Of a DNA stretch of 45,074 nt, positions 1 through 12,000 are shown in pieces; within the stretch, counting starts at the first letter, position 1, and each line of letters starts with the position of its first letter. This DNA is from Vulcanimicrobiaceae bacterium (lineage in GTDB: Bacteria; Vulcanimicrobiota; Vulcanimicrobiia; Vulcanimicrobiales; Vulcanimicrobiaceae), in contig JBHEMM010000019.1 of the NCBI GenBank assembly GCA_046262595.1, positions 1 through 45,074 on the forward strand, given 5' to 3'. A program made the position numbers.

Positions 1-3000
1 GCGTGTAGTCGCCCGGCCCGATCTGCACCGAAAAGGCGCCGGCGGCATCGCTGACCGCATGCGCGCTTTGCGGGCCGCGCAGAGCGATCTGCGCGCCGCC
101 GACGGGGCTGCCTGAGGGACTGTGTATGTTACCCGACAGAACGCAGCACAGCACCGCGAAAACGAAGGTCATATTTTGCCTACGCTATGCATGGGGCCTT
201 AACGCTTTCTGAGAACCGGGCAAGCTAATGCGTCTTAGGGAGAAGGCGCATCACTTCGTGCGCGTAGTCGAGAACGATGCGGTACTTCGAGAGAAAGCCG
301 CCGCCCAAATGGCCGTCGGCGGTGCCGCGCAGCGTTTNNNNNNNNNNCATCAGTTCCACGCTCTCGCCGCCGACGCCGCTCACGCTCTGCATTTTTGTCG
401 CTTGAAAAAGTTGCGAGTGCTCACGGTAATATTCATAGCCCAGGTTGATGTTGGATTGGTCGCCCGTGTCGACCGCGAGCGAGCTGAGCGAATCGTTCAG
501 AATGACGCTGACGACCGGGACGAGATTTTGGAAGGCGAGCGGCACCGTCGCGGCGGCTGCGGAAACCGGCACGTTCTGCCCGAAGTACAATGCGTGCGCC
601 TGATAGTCGATCGTTACGGGCATCGTGGCGAGCGCATCGGCGCCGATCACGATATCGTAACCGTAGCGGTGAATGTCGCTCAGCACGACGTAATTTGCAT
701 CGCCAAAGTTTTTATCCGCCAGTTTCAGCGGTCCGGCGCGCACGACTTCCGTTGCATAGTTGCCCAAGCCCGCCACGCGGAGCATGCCGACCGGCTTGAG
801 ATTCAGCTGTTCGGCCAGCTCCACGCTCATCGACAACGCGGAGTTTCCAGAATCGATCAGGCACGCTACGCTGATGCCCGCGACCGTGCACGTTCCGAGC
901 GGCAAAATACTTTGCGGATCGAGCGCCATGGCGGGAAGCGCACCGGCAATCTCTTGCGCGTGTAAACCCTGCGGCGCGTTGAACGGCGCGGCCTCGACGC
1001 GGCGAGTCAAATAGCGTTCCAGGGGCGCGCCGCTGCGATCGATCTCGAACGGCAGCACGAACGCGCCGACGCGCCGGTAATCGCGCATCACGTAGACCGC
1101 ATCGCCGTTCACGTCTTGCGCGCCGGCTACGAGCCCCGTTTGCGGATTGACGTAGATCTCCATCGGCAGGGCAATGCGATCGCTTACGAAGATGCGCCGC
1201 ACCGTACGTCCGAGGAAATGCGCGGCGCCGCCGTCGTAAACCGTGCCTTCAAACTGCGGGTCCAGAAACGCAAGCATTCCCAAAATGCGCAGTGCGCGCA
1301 GCCGCGGCTCGGGCGTGCTCGAGCGCGGCAGTGCCGTGTCGTTAATGTTAACCGAAAAAAGCCGCTCGCCGTCGAAGTAAGTCCCTAAGCAGACCAAGCC
1401 CGTGCACTGGTCTTGCCGGTAGCGCAGACCTTGAACGTGGGTGGTCAAAATGGCCGGCATACCGTCAACGAGGTGCCGGGAGGTGCTTACGATATGCGCG
1501 TTTACCAGGCCGCCGTTGGCAGCGCGCATTCGCGCAAAAAGCGGCGCCAGGGCGGCAGCCTGCGGCCCCGCCGCGCCAGCCGTCAAGCATGCAAGAACGC
1601 AGAGCACGGCGAGCCGCGCGGCGAAGGCCATACCATGGAGTTCGATTTGCTCGACGGCTATCTTCTCGATGGTAAGCCCGCAAAGGCGGCGCTCATCGAA
1701 GCGCTGCTCGAATCGCCGCCCGCGTTGCCGCAAGCCGGACCGTTTTTGGAAGGCATGCGCATCTTGAAAGCGCGGACGCCGGATCTATCGCTGCTCGCAT
1801 TGCGTTTGATCCTCGCCGGAAAGCCGGCGAACGACGAAACGGTGCTCGCGCTGCGGACCGCTTCCGACGCCGCCCGCGCAAACGGCGCGGGCCGCCCGGC
1901 CGCAGTGGAGCGCTACCGTTCCTTAACATCGTCATGACCGGGAATAAACGTCCGCCGATGGAACGGGAGATCGGTTCCCCGCGTTGAGAATAGCGAGATG
2001 GTTGGTATTTATCGCACAATCCGGGTGGCAACCGCGGCCGCGCTTCTCGTGCTCGCCGGCGCCGGTTCCGCTCTTGCCGTTCCGCCCCCGTGGGCCCATT
2101 CCGGCCACCGGGGCCACGGCGCGCCGTCCGCCGGTCCGCGCGCGCACGCACTTATATCGGGAACCATCGTGGGCATCGATTATGGGTCGGCTACCATCCT
2201 CGTTGCAACGGCGCGCGGCATCGTACCGGTCGCCGTAACGCCATCGACCAGCATCTACCGTGGAAGCGCCTTTGCCTCGTTTGCGGAAATCGGACGCGGC
2301 GCACACGTTGACGTCGATGCGGCCGACGTCGAAGGGCACCTCGTCGCGCAGCTCATCCGCATCCGCTGACGGCGCGCTTCACGCGAGCGATCTCACGCTG
2401 GGGCGCCGCATTTGCGGCGTCTCTTTTGTTGTCGCGCCGCGCCAGACGCTGGTGGTACTGGGCCCGAGCGGCGCGGGAAAAACCTCGCTTTTGCGTCTCC
2501 TCGCCGGCTTGGAACCGCCCGATTGCGGCACCTTACGGTTCGATGGCGCGGATCTTTCGAATGTCCCGGCCGAGCGCCGCCGCATCGCCATGGTATTTCA
2601 GCAGGACGCTTTGCTGCCGCATCTCTCGATCGAGCAGAATCTCCGCTTTGCGATGCGAAGCGTCAAGCCGCAGCGCGTGCGCGAGATTGCGGCGGCGCTG
2701 GAGATCGGGCACCGTCTGCATGAACGCCCGGCCCGGCTCTCGGGCGGCGAACGCCAGCGTGCCTCGCTTGCGCGGGCGGTGCTCAGCGAACCGCGCGTGC
2801 TCCTGCTCGACGAACCGCTCGCGCATCTCGACCCGCAGCTACGCCGGCGCGTGGCATCCGCCTTTGCCGCATTCGTACACGAATGGGGCGGCCCGGTCAT
2901 CTTCGTGACGCACGATCACGAAGAAGCGCTCGCCTTGGGCGATCGCATTGCCATCTTGATTGCGGGGCGCATCGTCCAGTGCGATGTACCGCAGAACGTC

Positions 3001-9000: not shown

Positions 9001-12000
9001 CCTTCGCTCGGATCGGCGGCACAATTTTTTGCCGCGTACCCCGCGTGGGACTACTTGCAGCAGTATGCGAACCTGCACGATCCGCCGCTCCGAAGCGAAC
9101 TGGCGCTCGCGCAACAGCTCAGATCCCTCGTTGGAGAGCCGCTGCTGCAGGCCTATCTGCAGACACGCGCGCGCAACTTGAGCGTCGATCTGCACGAAAT
9201 CGGTCTCGCGCGCGCAAGCGGCTTGAATGCACTCGCGCTCGGGCAGGACGATGCCGGCCCATACGGGCTGCACCTCAAAGACGTCTCGGCGCTGCAGCAA
9301 GCGGCAGCGCAAATGCCCGGACGCATCGCCATCGAACCGGGCGCCGACGAATTAGGAATGGCGATGGTGGCCCACGCGCTTGCGCGCAGCGTGCATTGGT
9401 TTCCGTCGGTGGCCGTGCATTATTATCCCGCAGCGGGCGGCTCGATCAACGATCCGCTGGAGTATGCGCCCATCGACGTAGCCGTCGGCTCACTTATCAC
9501 GCTCTGCGGCGCTGTGCGCACGCAGGGGCCCGCCGACATTCACCTGTACGTGCGCGCGCCGGGATCGAACGCGCAGGACGATGCCGCGCTCCAGCAGGCG
9601 CTGCAGGCAGACGAGACGGCGGGCGACTCCGTGGCGTTCGCCGATCTGACGTTCTTGGAAGATTCGTTCGCCAGTCAAGCGCGCTTCGCTGAGTCACTGC
9701 TTGCCGGCGGCCTGGCTTCGAAGCTCGACGCGTATTCGTCGTGGAACACGAATGCGAATACGGTGGGCACGGCGATCGCAGAAGCGGTCGCCGCCGGCGC
9801 CGGACGGCGCAGCCACCGTTACGACGCGTTGGCGCACAAGACGTTCACGTTCAACCGCATCGTGGACGACTATGCGTTCCACGATTACGTTCGCCCCGAT
9901 CTCAACGCGTGGCTGAGCTCGCAAGGTATCGCCGACCATACGTATCTCTTGCCGGGACCGGCGGCACAGGCCGCATCGCGCAACGGCGCGGAACTGTTCG
10001 CGCGCGCTGCCGCATTACTGCCGCACCTCTATCCGGGCTATCACATCGCCGCAATGCAAATTACGCTGCCGTGGAACCGGACGTTCGAAACCGAAATCGA
10101 CGCAGCGCTGGCGCCGCGGCTTTAGCGCGGCTAGCGGACGAGGTCGCCGGCCAGAACGAAAACGATGCCGCGCGCCTGCAGTTGGGCATAAAGCGCGCGC
10201 AGCGCCGCAAGCGTCGTCGGCTTGGGATGCCCGATCGCGATCGCGCTGCCTTTGCGCTGCGCGACGCCGGCGGCATGAAGCAGCATCGCTTCCGTGTACG
10301 CCGTATCGGCTTCGTTATCCAAAAAGACATCGCGCGACGCGTTGGGAATGCCGTCCGCTTGCGCGAGCGCCGCTCCCACCGTTGCCTTGTTCGTGCGAGA
10401 ATCGATAAAGAACAGGCCGTGCTGCTTCACAACGGAGAGCACGTGGGCCATCACCCGCGCGTCCGCGCTTGCGGCGCTGCCCTCGTGATTGTTCACTCCC
10501 GCGGCTAGCGGAACTTGTGCAAGATCGTCTTGCGTCTGTGCATCGACGGCGTCATCGCTCATCGCCGTTTCGATCTCGCCTTCGCCCGAGCGCTTGTGCG
10601 AGAGCGGCTCCATCGGCAGATGCAGCATCACGCCTTTGCCGGCGCCGGAGGCTTCGGCGGCGATTTGCGCCGTGTAGCGCACGTGCGGCATGACGGAAAG
10701 CGTGATGGGAATCGGAAGCGCGATAAGCGCGCGCTCTATCCCGGGCCACTGTCCGCAGTCGTCAATGATGATTGCGAGTTTCGCGGGCGTGGCGGCGGCC
10801 GCCGTAGAGGATACGCTCGGCGCAAACGTCGCGCCGGGCGATGCCTGCGCCGAGGGCGAGGGCAACGGCGTTGCGGCCGGCCGCGGCGAGGCGCCGTGGA
10901 CGCGGTACGCATACCGTTTTCCCGGATGATGAGCGCGCGGAACGATGGTCCATGTGACGCCCGCAAGCAATGCGAGCGCAATAAAAACGGGCAACGCCGG
11001 ATTGCTCCGCCGCGTGCGCCGGCGTCTACGAGGCATAAGTGCTATTAATTGCGCACCTGGGGTAAAGTGTCATGCATGCCCGCATACGATGCGCTCATCA
11101 TCGGCGGCGGTCCCGCCGGTTTAAGCGCTGCCTTAAGCCTCGGACGGTCGTGCCGTTCGGTGCTGGTTTGCGACGACGGACAGCCGCGCAACGCCGTTGC
11201 GGATCGGATGCACGGCTTTCTTTCGCGCGACGGGACGCCGCCGGCGGAACTGCTCCGCACGGCGCGCGAGCAGCTCGCCCAGTATGCGTCGGTCAGCTTT
11301 CGCGCGGGGCACATTGCGGCGGCTTCAAAAGAACGTGACGCGTTCGTCCTCGAGTCGGATGCCGGCGAACGCTTTGAGGCGCGCACCGTCCTCTTGTCGA
11401 CGGGTGTTTACGACGAGTTGCCGGCGATCGACGGAGTCCGCGAGCAGTGGGGCCGCAGCGTCTTCGTGTGCCCCTACTGCGACGGATGGGAAGTGCGCGG
11501 CAGACGGCTTGCGATCCTCGGCAAAGGCGGGCGCGCGATCGAGCTCGCGCAAGAGCTGCGACAATGGAGCGACGATCTGTTGGTGTGCCTGCAGCGCGAC
11601 GGAGAGGTAAGCGAGAAGCAGAAGCGTTGGCTCGAACGCAGCCGGGCGAACGTCCGCGAGGCGGAAGTCGTGCGCGTGCAAGACGAACGGGGCGGCCTGC
11701 GGCTTCACTTTTCGGATGGTGCGCACGAGCTTTGCGACGCGCTCTTCCTTTGCGCGCCGCTGCGTCAGCGCTATCCGCTGGTGGCAATGCTCGGCTGCAG
11801 CCTCGGTCCCGACGGGAATATCGCCGCCGACAATCACGGGCGGACCGGCGTCGGCGGCGTCTACGCCGCCGGCGATGCGGCGAGCAGCGTGCATCAGGTC
11901 ATGTTGGCCGCGGCGAGCGGCGTTTGCGCGGGCATGGCAATCAACGAAGACTTGCTTGCGGCCGAGGTTGAAGCGCTGTCCTGATGCATGTCGCCGTGCT

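Follow-up and report, generated by a model that had tools for sequence, protein, structure and literature searches.

A DUF4127 protein encoded at the end of a cell-wall amino-sugar recycling operon in a Vulcanimicrobiaceae bacterium, a possible new hydrolase family

MurNAc recycling gene sets (nagZ, anmK, and murQ; murQ-murR-murP-amiE-nagZ-namZ) are among the closest described counterparts of the locus analyzed here. Those of Escherichia coli and Bacillus subtilis share with it NagZ, AnmK, MurQ, and a PF00144 protein, and the same route from muropeptide to GlcNAc-6P and D-lactate. In E. coli, murQ-murP is presumably followed by yfeW (PBP4B). Release of (anhydro-)MurNAc from the stem peptide during recycling is the task of AmpD (Amidase_2) and AmiE (PF00144). 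Table 1 of PMC10653849 places the characterized MurNAc-L-Ala amidase of B. subtilis, AmiE (YbbE) from the murQ operon, under Beta-lactamase PF00144.

Both domains of unknown function (DUFs) previously found in murQ operons turned out to be muramidases, a precedent that may extend to DUF4127. According to the account in PMC6262408, DUF871 became MupG (PF05913), the cytoplasmic 6-phospho-N-acetylmuramidase of Staphylococcus aureus, which is encoded beside murQ and cleaves the MurNAc(6P)-GlcNAc bond, enabling MurQ. DUF1343 became NamZ (YbbC, CAZy GH171), the B. subtilis exo-β-N-acetylmuramidase, encoded at the end of a murQ operon in which nagZ and the PF00144 amidase gene amiE are also found; its description in PMC8054146 is of a two-domain protein with a Rossmann-like α/β domain and no cofactor.

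The window, a stretch of 45,074 nucleotides, corresponds to contig C19 from position 1 to 45074, so positions 2317 to 10125 can be used directly as window coordinates; the first-pass annotation was wrong in placing only 6378 to 10125 within it (offset, 6377). Pfam and NCBIfam profile searches revealed seven co-directional plus-strand genes between 2317 and 10125, in the order msiK-like ATPase, nagZ, PF00144 β-lactamase-fold gene, anmK, BadF-type kinase, murQ, and DUF4127. Inspection of the sequence found five overlapping junctions (GTGA at 3318, TAGTG at 4814, 13 nt at 6828, ATGA at 7727, and GTGA at 8617), and the junction between the β-lactamase-fold gene and anmK is masked by 10 consecutive N at 5786 to 5795, reflecting an assembly gap or bases that were withheld. 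The genes are translationally coupled, and DUF4127 is terminal, since the neighboring divergent polysaccharide deacetylase gene (Polysacc_deac_2, YibQ-like; 10131 to 11036, minus strand; PF04748, E 4.4e-70) is convergent to it. Profile matches and junction overlaps thus agree with the earlier view of a single co-directional cell-wall amino-sugar recycling operon ending in DUF4127. The deacetylase gene occupies the matching position in only two related loci (L007 and L009).

Directly 5′ of the operon, the ORF list contains a small conserved ORF of 123 aa with a hydrophobic N terminus (1998 to 2369, plus strand), which matched no Pfam family and for which tblastn also gave matches 5′ of the operon in 10 of the 33 related loci. 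The first operon gene encodes an MsiK/MalK-type ABC ATPase (2317 to 3321; ABC_tran, E 1e-34; TOBE_2, E 5.5e-10) with an uncertain start, ATG 2317 or GTG 2260 (Walker A is at residue 68 in the 2260 frame), and has neither a permease nor a binding-protein gene beside it. NagZ, a GH3 β-N-acetylglucosaminidase of 498 aa (3318 to 4814; PF00933, E 3.3e-72; NF003740, 242.7 bits against a cut-off of 207), starts at GTG 3318, overlapping the msiK stop, and lacks a signal peptide; its C-terminal 174 aa (a region of ∼170 aa) had no Pfam match. The gene for a β-lactamase-fold serine hydrolase resembling AmiE, PBP4B, and AmpH (4814 to about 5785; PF00144, E 1.1e-45) starts at GTG 4814, overlapping the nagZ stop, and loses its 3′ end in the N run; its product matches PBP4B partially (NF002968, E 1.7e-22) and also AmpH. 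AnmK (5796 to 6840; PF03702, E 1.2e-75; NF007148, E 3e-95, 319 bits, below the cut-off of 387) lacks its N terminus in the gap, and its profile match begins only at profile position 26. The next gene begins at ATG 6828, so that its first 13 nt coincide with the end of anmK, and encodes a BadF/BcrA-type, NagK-like sugar kinase (6828 to 7730; PF01869 [BcrAD_BadFG], E 2.4e-22) with a weak, below-cut-off match to NagK_SO3507 (E 7e-30); MurK-type MurNAc/GlcNAc kinases belong to the same Pfam family. MurQ, the MurNAc-6-phosphate etherase (7727 to 8620; TIGR00274, 312.9 bits against a cut-off of 302; NF003915, 363 bits), has a start overlapping the kinase stop (ATGA), and the GTG start of DUF4127 (8617 to 10125; 502 aa; PF13552, E 2.7e-97, 326.8 bits against a cut-off of 27) overlaps the murQ stop (GTGA). 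The DUF4127 protein has no signal peptide and no Pfam match except PF13552. As the first-pass annotation had also stated, a literature search for “DUF4127” or “PF13552” found no paper naming either.

Unlike the E. coli and B. subtilis sets, this operon combines all steps in one cytoplasmic system, in which kinases replace the PTS, an orphan MsiK-type ATPase is present, no regulator gene occurs, and DUF4127 is added. Of 80 loci fetched, 33 showed 45% identity or more, and upstream DNA of at least 3.5 kb was available for 26 of them; anmK and murQ lie upstream of DUF4127 on the same strand in 24 of the 26. The conserved arrangement reported earlier therefore stands, although its figure of 68 of 68 is close rather than identical, and calling DUF4127 the “fixed” last gene was slightly too strong, as two loci (L021 and L025) deviate and carry MFS-Metallophos-DUF4127 instead. 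Where at least 7.7 kb of upstream DNA was available (23 loci), all six upstream genes were present in 10, which are those with the msiK-like gene, and the five other than msiK in 12. DUF4127 itself occurs in 147 of the 151 genomes of the order. This conservation, together with the GTGA overlap with murQ, argues for a hydrolytic role in the pathway.

We tentatively propose DUF4127 as a new family of hydrolases that need no cofactor and have carboxylated N-acetyl-amino-sugar glycosides as substrates; in this organism, the enzyme would work on MurNAc-containing fragments in the cytoplasm. Cell-wall fragments would be imported, possibly via an ABC system energized by the MsiK-like ATPase; NagZ would remove GlcNAc, the AmiE-type PF00144 hydrolase would take off the stem peptide, AnmK and the BadF-type kinase would generate MurNAc-6P and GlcNAc-6P, and MurQ would remove D-lactate. 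DUF4127 would cleave a MurNAc-containing fragment resistant to NagZ and the amidase, most likely at the MurNAc-β-1,4-GlcNAc bond of imported glycan pieces, and so would do the job of MupG or NamZ in another fold. No MupG (PF05913) match was found in this genome, which counts for the proposal. The authors of the MupG study classify it among TIM-barrel glycosidases, unlike DUF4127 with its flavodoxin-like domains, and as a phospho-sugar enzyme MupG would not be secreted, whereas many DUF4127 members are. NamZ (PF07075 plus PF20732), in contrast, is encoded at a different locus in this genome, and the order carries it in 61 of 61 genomes, so an exo-muramidase already exists, which argues against the proposal, and DUF4127 is an addition rather than a replacement. 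The NamZ of this genome, with its hydrophobic N terminus, is perhaps periplasmic; B. subtilis secretes its NamZ, whereas the DUF4127 protein here is cytoplasmic. The two share no detectable homology (hhalign probability of 0.1 against the NamZ of this genome), and NamZ is outside the top 50 structural matches of DUF4127. Also against a hydrolase, the canonical pathway has no obvious hole in this genome, which encodes LdcA and a NagA-like protein (211.7 bits, just under the cut-off of 225.65).

The first-pass annotation had left the muropeptide amidase step open on the grounds that the genome has no Amidase_2 gene. None was indeed found in this genome (89.7% complete), and matches in the order are scarce and weak (21 of 151 genomes, 22 to 53 bits), whereas DUF4127 is present in 147 of 151. 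DUF4127 could then be a cytoplasmic anhydro-MurNAc-L-Ala amidase, a nonhomologous replacement for AmpD that frees anhydro-MurNAc for AnmK; the PF00144 protein would have another job, e.g., D-Ala trimming. AmiE was characterized on MurNAc-peptides, the many conserved Arg residues of DUF4127 could bind peptide carboxylates, and Peptidase_S10 genes lie near DUF4127 in four distant loci. However, AmiE is itself a PF00144 protein, so the β-lactamase-fold gene adjoining nagZ would already cover this step: its product keeps the SxxK (SITK), YSD, and HTG motifs and is the more economical candidate for a cytoplasmic MurNAc-L-Ala amidase. DUF4127 matches neither the AmpD nor the AmiE family and has no invariant His or Cys, S85 being its only near-invariant Ser (74 of 78 diverse homologues), and hence bears no zinc-amidase or classical Ser/Cys-amidase signature. 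In addition, outside the order it lies mostly in peptide-free glycan loci (SusCD, GH38, GH20, and 2-epimerase). The amidase idea is weakened, and we consider it improbable.

Sixteen residues are invariant in the 78 diverse homologues (P13, D15, R17, P38, W58, G80, G81, R86, R122, D212, D244, N381, G384, W486, R488, and E491). The invariant His columns claimed earlier hold within the close clade only: position 407 is His in 34 and position 422 in 21 of the 78, and neither H441 nor H476 is conserved. A carboxylate-bearing sugar such as MurNAc would be a fitting ligand for the eight Arg that are invariant or nearly so. The AF2 model has a pLDDT of 94.5 and a pTM of 0.94. In our proposal, the protein consists of two flavodoxin-like α/β domains, and invariant Asp/Glu, Arg, Asn, and Trp residues line its cleft. 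Searches of the PDB for related folds, in agreement with the earlier observation, returned no specific solved relative and only generic matches (flavodoxin-like, receiver, GTPase, SGNH, and PdxK) with Z of at most 9.3, which weighs against the hydrolase proposal, in that activity, ligand, and catalytic geometry remain inferred. The N-domain model (residues 1 to 205, pLDDT 94.1) has SGNH/GDSL esterases, including CE2, CE3, and sialic acid esterase, as about 20 of its top 50 neighbors (122 to 142 aligned residues, Z 7.9 to 9.0, rmsd 3.0 to 4.0), and invariant D15-x-R17 at the end of strand 1 occupies the GDS position of these enzymes. AXE1 and GDSL esterases adjoin DUF4127 in three loci, and the convergent gene in the window is a Polysacc_deac_2 gene. 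DUF4127 might thus be a sugar de-acylase (O-acetyl esterase or N-deacetylase) of SGNH-like descent acting on acetylated MurNAc/GlcNAc fragments. This appears quite unlikely: the SGNH Ser-Gly-Asn-His set is not conserved, with Asp in place of the catalytic Ser and no invariant His, profile similarity is lacking (hhalign probability of 0.6 against a GDSL neighbor), and the Z values are in a range common for unrelated α/β domains. Furthermore, a NagA-like gene lies elsewhere in the genome, and the esterases already beside DUF4127 in the AXE1/GDSL loci argue for a different step.

Outside the order, DUF4127 proteins are mostly predicted to be secreted, with signal-like N termini, and encoded in non-muropeptide glycan loci. 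A hydrophobic N-terminal extension is present in about 32 of the 78 diverse members and in 25 of 27 inspected non-Eremiobacterota loci; it is absent from Eremiobacterota and Chloroflexota forms. As the family occurs on both sides of the membrane, a need for ATP, NAD, or phospho-sugars is unlikely, and this mixed location argues for a hydrolase. In a survey of 45 loci (±2 genes), GHL10 was directly 5′ of DUF4127 in seven; E. coli DigH, which hydrolyzes denuded peptidoglycan glycans according to the account in PMC12288456, is a GHL10 protein (E 6e-136). Other neighbors were GH38-like (5), GntR/UTRA (5), AXE1 (3), GH20 (1), and GH3 (1) genes. GlcNAc 2-epimerase occurred in four loci; an MFS permease and SusC/SusD accompany it within the same frame in three, on the opposite strand in L048, and FAD_oxidored and ROK follow in L043 and L068. 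One Chloroflexota locus has the order ROK, epimerase, DUF4127, ABC importer, GH38, and GH3, and one 1,162-aa representative is a DUF4127-GH3 fusion. These glycan contexts favor the hydrolase proposal, as do signs of an association with carboxylate transport: a membrane protein that adjoins DUF4127 in 11 loci and is conserved among them (48 to 86% mutual identity) resembles GntP/CitMHS/DcuC/DctM symporters (scores of 0.96 to 0.98; carboxylate-type permease), and two representatives are LrgB-DUF4127 fusions.

Other evidence from gene contexts runs against the hydrolase proposal. Neither murQ nor anmK lies beside DUF4127 in any of 47 distant loci, so specificity varies within the family, and the Metallophos, Peptidase_S10, Hydantoinase_A, and FAD oxidoreductase contexts suggest other chemistries. 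FAD_oxidored (PF12831) was near DUF4127 in seven loci (L043, L050, L056, L068, L070, L081, and L101), Metallophos in seven (L021, L025, L055, L059, L061, L072, and L080), Hydantoinase_A in six, and 3keto-disac_hyd and GFO_IDH_MocA in one each. With such nonglycosidase neighbors, LrgB fusions that could hint at a small acid such as lactate, and no fold match constraining the chemistry, DUF4127 might instead act on the same substrates as a lyase, isomerase, mutarotase, or phosphoesterase, process the stem peptide or D-lactate, or be a noncatalytic binding or regulatory subunit. We regard this set of roles as somewhat unlikely, because the 16 invariant Asp/Glu/Arg/Trp/Asn-rich columns at strand ends resemble an active site that binds a polar, sugar-like ligand more than they do a scaffold, the existence of secreted forms rules out steps that depend on ATP or phospho-sugars, and SusCD/GH loci do not fit peptide or lactate roles. 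Whichever chemistry applies, the place of DUF4127 as the tightly coupled last gene of this operon makes the function of an uncharacterized family testable.

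The DUF4127 protein (PF13552, 502 aa) is encoded at the end of a series of seven plus-strand genes (2317-10125), and the co-directional recycling operon described in the first-pass annotation was recovered in full. The first gene encodes a TOBE_2-containing ABC ATPase of the MalK/MsiK type (2317 or 2260 to 3321; Pfam) and is followed by those for the GH3 enzyme NagZ (3318-4814; NF003740, 242.7 bits, cut-off 207), a protein with a beta-lactamase fold (4814 to about 5785; PF00144, 156.7 bits, cut-off 27), AnmK (to 6840; PF03702, 255 bits, with NCBIfam equivalogs below cut-off), a BadF/BcrA-family sugar kinase (6828-7730; Pfam/NCBIfam), MurQ (7727-8620; TIGR00274, 312.9 bits, cut-off 302) and DUF4127 (8617-10125; PF13552, 326.8 bits, cut-off 27, profile positions 1-488 of 489, with the same result in a whole-genome search). 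The co-directional NagZ, AnmK and MurQ genes place DUF4127 in a MurNAc recycling operon. This operon varies on MurNAc recycling gene sets that are already known, and the DUF4127 link is new to the literature searched. A convergent gene for a Polysacc_deac_2 deacetylase (10131-11036) comes next, with 5 nt between its end and that of DUF4127; DUF4127 is therefore the last gene of the operon. The same annotation had assigned only 6378-10125 to the window; as the window is C19:1-45074, the coordinates 2317-10125 apply directly, and subtracting 6377 gives unrelated frames.

At five of the six junctions, the start of one gene overlaps the stop of the gene before it (3318, GTGA; 4814, TAGTG; 6828, 13 nt; 7727, ATGA; 8617, GTGA), and the sixth, between the beta-lactamase-fold gene and anmK, is masked by ten N (5786-5795). 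These overlaps and the conserved gene order argue for one predicted transcription unit, for which a promoter and terminator scan of the operon returned nothing informative. Because of the N run, in which its N-terminus is lost, the AnmK match starts at profile position 26. The C-terminus of the beta-lactamase-fold protein and approximately the first 25 AnmK profile positions, including the N-terminal nucleotide-binding motif, are unreadable, and open reading frames (ORFs) read through the run (4715-5845 and 5584-6840) are artefacts. At 2400-2423, in the 5' part of the ATPase frame and just past the end of a small ORF, a GC hairpin and the T-rich run behind it resemble a terminator. NagZ, the PF00144 protein and DUF4127 carry no signal-peptide-like N-terminal extension, and the recycling pathway is predicted from sequence to be cytoplasmic. 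No permease or binding-protein gene lies beside the ATPase, and the window has 0 matches in scans for Rfam families and tRNAs.

Upstream of the operon are a divergent gene for a 502-aa protein (225-1733, minus strand), whose retropepsin-like aspartyl-protease matches are weak and below cut-off, and the small ORF (123 aa; 1998-2369, plus strand), which matches no Pfam family and encodes a protein that is hydrophobic at its N-terminus. Among relatives, the former is found upstream of the operon in most full-length loci and the latter in 10 of 33; both may be linked to uptake or regulation. Downstream, 10131-16301 (minus strand) and 11049-12556 (plus strand) encode Polysacc_deac_2, a thioredoxin-reductase-like flavoprotein, an FMN reductase, a glyoxalase-domain protein, methylmalonyl-CoA mutase and biotin carboxylase. 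The mutase/glyoxalase block is also located 3' of DUF4127 in many relatives.

A scan of one genome per species gave 80 DUF4127 loci, 33 of which encode a protein at least 45% identical to that of the window. Both anmK and murQ are upstream on the same strand in 24 of the 26 loci with at least 3.5 kb of upstream sequence. All six upstream genes are present in 10 of the 23 loci with at least 7.7 kb upstream, and the ATPase alone is missing in 12. Gene order, previously described as fixed, is thus conserved in nearly all informative loci and falls slightly short of perfect fixity, as two (L021 and L025) have MFS-Metallophos-DUF4127 instead. Within the phylum, the more distant paralogues L039 and L044 adjoin branched-chain-type ABC ATPases. 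In a subclade of eight loci (L022, L023, L024, L026, L031, L033, L037 and L038), murQ and DUF4127 are 0.5-1.5 kb apart, the gap being occupied either by an ORF of ~160-195 aa that matches no Pfam family or by a DUF4127 frame extended at its N-terminus; LrgB was not found in the gap ORFs of relatives. The gene occurs in 147 of 151 sampled genomes of the order with completeness of ≥85%, a count that takes in three unpublished genomes (G404, G434 and G451), and in 6 of 301 Chloroflexota genomes; of 14 control genomes, only those of Thermus and Deinococcus have it.

As the first-pass annotation had noted, Amidase_2 is absent from the own genome (89.7% complete); across the order, weak matches occur in just 21 of 151 genomes. 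The amidase step had accordingly been left open, with DUF4127 as a candidate. However, Bacillus subtilis amiE (ybbE) is classed as Beta-lactamase PF00144 in Table 1 of PMC10653849, and AmiE is described as the exo-MurNAc-L-Ala amidase of the murQ-murR-murP-amiE-nagZ-namZ operon (PMC8054146, PMC5061867). The operon studied here has its own PF00144 gene (4814-5785), which is translationally coupled to nagZ, matches the family model and retains SITK, YSD and HTG motifs; its likeness to AmiE is one of shared family. PF00144 hydrolases carry SxxK, YxN-type and (K/H)(T/S)G motifs. The PF00144 protein is therefore a simpler candidate than DUF4127 and the likely muropeptide amidase, a correction that bears on the annotation of such operons. 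Amidases of the AmpD type bind zinc through His, His and Asp/Cys, and 78 diverse DUF4127 homologues share no invariant His or Cys; PF13552 is the sole Pfam match of the protein at E values up to 0.01. DUF4127 thus shows no amidase signature in its sequence, and an AmpD-like amidase activity, which would fill the step left by the missing Amidase_2 gene, is improbable.

Sixteen columns of DUF4127 are invariant in the 78 homologues (P13, D15, R17, P38, W58, G80, G81, R86, R122, D212, D244, N381, G384, W486, R488 and E491) and a further 11 nearly so (S85, R184, R186, E282, D343, W376, N377, T378, R414, D418 and R426). The His columns earlier reported as invariant proved to be clade specific: His is found at H407 in 34 and at H422 in 21 of the 78, and H441 and H476 are not conserved. 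Glycoside hydrolases cleave glycosidic bonds by means of a pair of carboxylates, and the invariant columns of DUF4127 include four acids (D15, D212, D244 and E491). In an AF2 model built from the 78 sequences (pLDDT 94.5, pTM 0.94), strands and helices alternate to form at least two alpha/beta domains and a C-terminal hairpin. D15 and R17 (strand 1), D212 (strand 5), D244 (strand 6), D343 and WNTxxN (strand 10) lie at strand ends, and the model suggests that the conserved acids, Arg, Asn and Trp line one interdomain pocket.

Structural and sequence searches provided no specific solved relative, in agreement with the earlier view that fold matches are generic. Neither the protein nor the 78-sequence profile had a significant match in searches of PDB sequences (best E value, 0.14), an ESM Atlas search returned the family's own cluster and nothing else, and NCBIfam has no model for the protein. 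TIM-barrel and other Foldseek matches to the whole model (TM of about 0.2) were regarded as noise. A wide VIA-align search and a second look with the whole model, and a search with a separate model of the N-domain, gave generic matches only (Z of at most 9.3), the best for the whole model being to receiver, GTPase and deoxyribosyltransferase-like domains that align with residues 243-403. PdxK also matched the model (Z about 8-8.6, rmsd 4.5), and a kinase or ATP-dependent function of this type was set aside given the secreted members of the family. The N-domain alone (pLDDT 94.1) matches receiver domains and, with longer alignments, ~20 SGNH/GDSL esterases (122-142 residues, Z 7.9-9.0). The latter resemblance would favor a de-acylase on an SGNH-like scaffold, but SGNH/GDSL catalysis requires the Ser of GDS after strand 1 and the His of block V, and neither is conserved in DUF4127, which has an invariant D15-x-R17 after strand 1 and no invariant His. 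An hhalign comparison with a GDSL esterase also indicated no relation, and de-acylation is consequently an unlikely activity.

Secreted and cytoplasmic forms of the family both appear to exist, as judged by reading N-termini. A hydrophobic N-terminal extension is present in ~32 of 78 representatives, and 25 of 27 proteins inspected from distant loci (<40% identity) have signal-peptide-like N-termini; Eremiobacterota and Chloroflexota proteins do not. If a family is active on both sides of the membrane, its enzymes are unlikely to depend on ATP, NAD(P) or phospho-sugars, and this dual location therefore favors a plain hydrolase.

Gene neighborhoods (±2 genes) were surveyed in 45 of 47 distant loci, L057 and L073 being left out because the DUF4127 gene was not placed. 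No murQ or anmK was found on the fetched stretches of distant loci outside the phylum; inside it, the distant paralogue L044 has murQ ~8 kb upstream. GHL10 is encoded directly 5' of DUF4127 in seven distant loci. Escherichia coli DigH, described as hydrolyzing denuded peptidoglycan glycans (PMC12288456), belongs to the GHL10 family (PF02638, E value of 6e-136). GlcNAc 2-epimerase and an MFS permease are found in four distant loci, followed by SusC-SusD-FAD_oxidored-ROK in two and with GH20 in one. Other neighbors are a large GH38-like protein, GntR/UTRA and Metallophos (five loci each), Hydantoinase_A (six), Peptidase_S10 (four), AXE1 (three) and, directly 3', GH3 (one). One Chloroflexota locus has the order ROK, 2-epimerase, DUF4127, ABC importer, GH38 and GH3, and in a second, NanE and GntR/UTRA are found on the far side of an ABC importer. 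Fusions among representatives comprise one DUF4127-GH3 protein (1162 aa) and two LrgB-DUF4127 proteins. A membrane protein of ~420 aa without a Pfam family, 48-86% identical among copies, accompanies DUF4127 in 11 loci (L051:2232-3491, L059, L060, L061, L063, L065, L069, L072, L075, L076 and L078). In 10 of these, on Acidobacteriota-type contigs, it is directly 3' of a secreted DUF4127, and in L063 it is ~5 kb upstream on the opposite strand. A language-model search likened it, as a lead only, to GntP/CitMHS/DcuC/DctM carboxylate symporters (0.96-0.98). Taken together, the contexts of DUF4127 point to the breakdown of amino-sugar glycans, in many cases with a hint of carboxylates and in some explicitly of peptidoglycan glycan.

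FAD_oxidored (PF12831) occurs in four loci of the census and in seven when L043, L068 and the Chloroflexota locus L101 are included (L043:16568-18280, L068:16492-18231, L050:11528-13345, L056:11528-13240, L070:4321-6072, L081:7119-8546 and L101:3427-4818). It lies beside DUF4127 in three phyla, often in SusCD loci with GlcNAc 2-epimerase and ROK kinase.

Two DUFs of murQ operons have previously been assigned a function, DUF871 (MupG; PMC6262408) and DUF1343 (NamZ; PMC8054146), and both are described as cutting the MurNAc-GlcNAc bond. A complete NamZ (NamZ_N and NamZ_C; PF07075 and PF20732) is encoded in the own genome (G000:C15:36629-37822, equivalent to L087:1387-2580), outside the recycling operon and among menaquinone (VitK2_biosynth) genes; its hydrophobic N-terminus suggests that it may act outside the cytoplasm. 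MupG/GH170 (PF05913) matches neither DUF4127 nor anything else in the genome. DUF4127 is not detectably related to NamZ in sequence: an hhalign comparison with the own NamZ gave a probability of 0.1, and PF07075 does not match DUF4127. The best 50 structural matches listed for the whole model and for the N-domain were full of generic alpha/beta domains, with no NamZ-family chain among them. As to mechanism, we infer that in this operon NagZ would cleave GlcNAc-MurNAc, the PF00144 candidate MurNAc-L-Ala, AnmK the 1,6-anhydro ring and MurQ the lactyl ether, leaving MurNAc-GlcNAc as the only one of these bonds without an assigned cytoplasmic enzyme. This vacancy, the absence of MupG and the precedent of NamZ and MupG lead us to propose, tentatively, that DUF4127 is a cytoplasmic hydrolase of MurNAc-terminated saccharides, representing one specificity within a broader family of acidic N-acetyl-amino-sugar hydrolases.

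Several findings count against hydrolysis of MurNAc saccharides. NamZ is present in all 61 genomes of the order in which it was sought, which also rules out that DUF4127 fills an empty NamZ slot, and the pathway has no obvious hole, as a NagA-like gene and LdcA are present. (Replacement of NagA was set aside, since the NagA-like gene scores 211.7 bits and secreted members cannot act on GlcNAc-6P.) In addition, several neighbors elsewhere point to other chemistries, and a different chemistry or a noncatalytic role has an appreciable minority chance of being correct. MurNAc-saccharide hydrolysis could, more speculatively, be extended to the whole family: DUF4127 might constitute a new glycoside hydrolase family of double flavodoxin/SGNH-like architecture, performing exo-cleavage of carboxylated N-acetyl-amino sugars. 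The sugar would be MurNAc in Eremiobacterota and, in the glycan loci of Bacteroidota, Acidobacteriota and Chloroflexota, a related acidic HexNAc or nonulosonic sugar. If so, muramidase activity would have emerged in a third independent murQ-operon DUF, and DUF4127 would be the first such cytoplasmic enzyme without need of a phosphorylated substrate.

PF13552 comprises 1,674 representatives at 50% identity (E values up to 0.001) and has no solved or characterized member; a literature search for “DUF4127” and “PF13552” found no paper, as also reported by the first-pass annotation. Its position as the last gene of a muropeptide-catabolic operon narrows the substrates to be tested to a few that can be bought or made enzymatically, and the value of the finding is that a large orphan family is made directly testable; NamZ (GH171) and MupG were discovered from the same kind of starting point. 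If DUF4127 is a MurNAc-type glycoside hydrolase, one more enzyme family would be added to cell-wall turnover, and recurring uncharacterized genes in the amino-sugar polysaccharide utilization loci of soil Bacteroidota and Acidobacteriota would be explained. Metabolic models of uncultured Eremiobacterota, in which DUF4127 is almost universal in the order, would also be improved.
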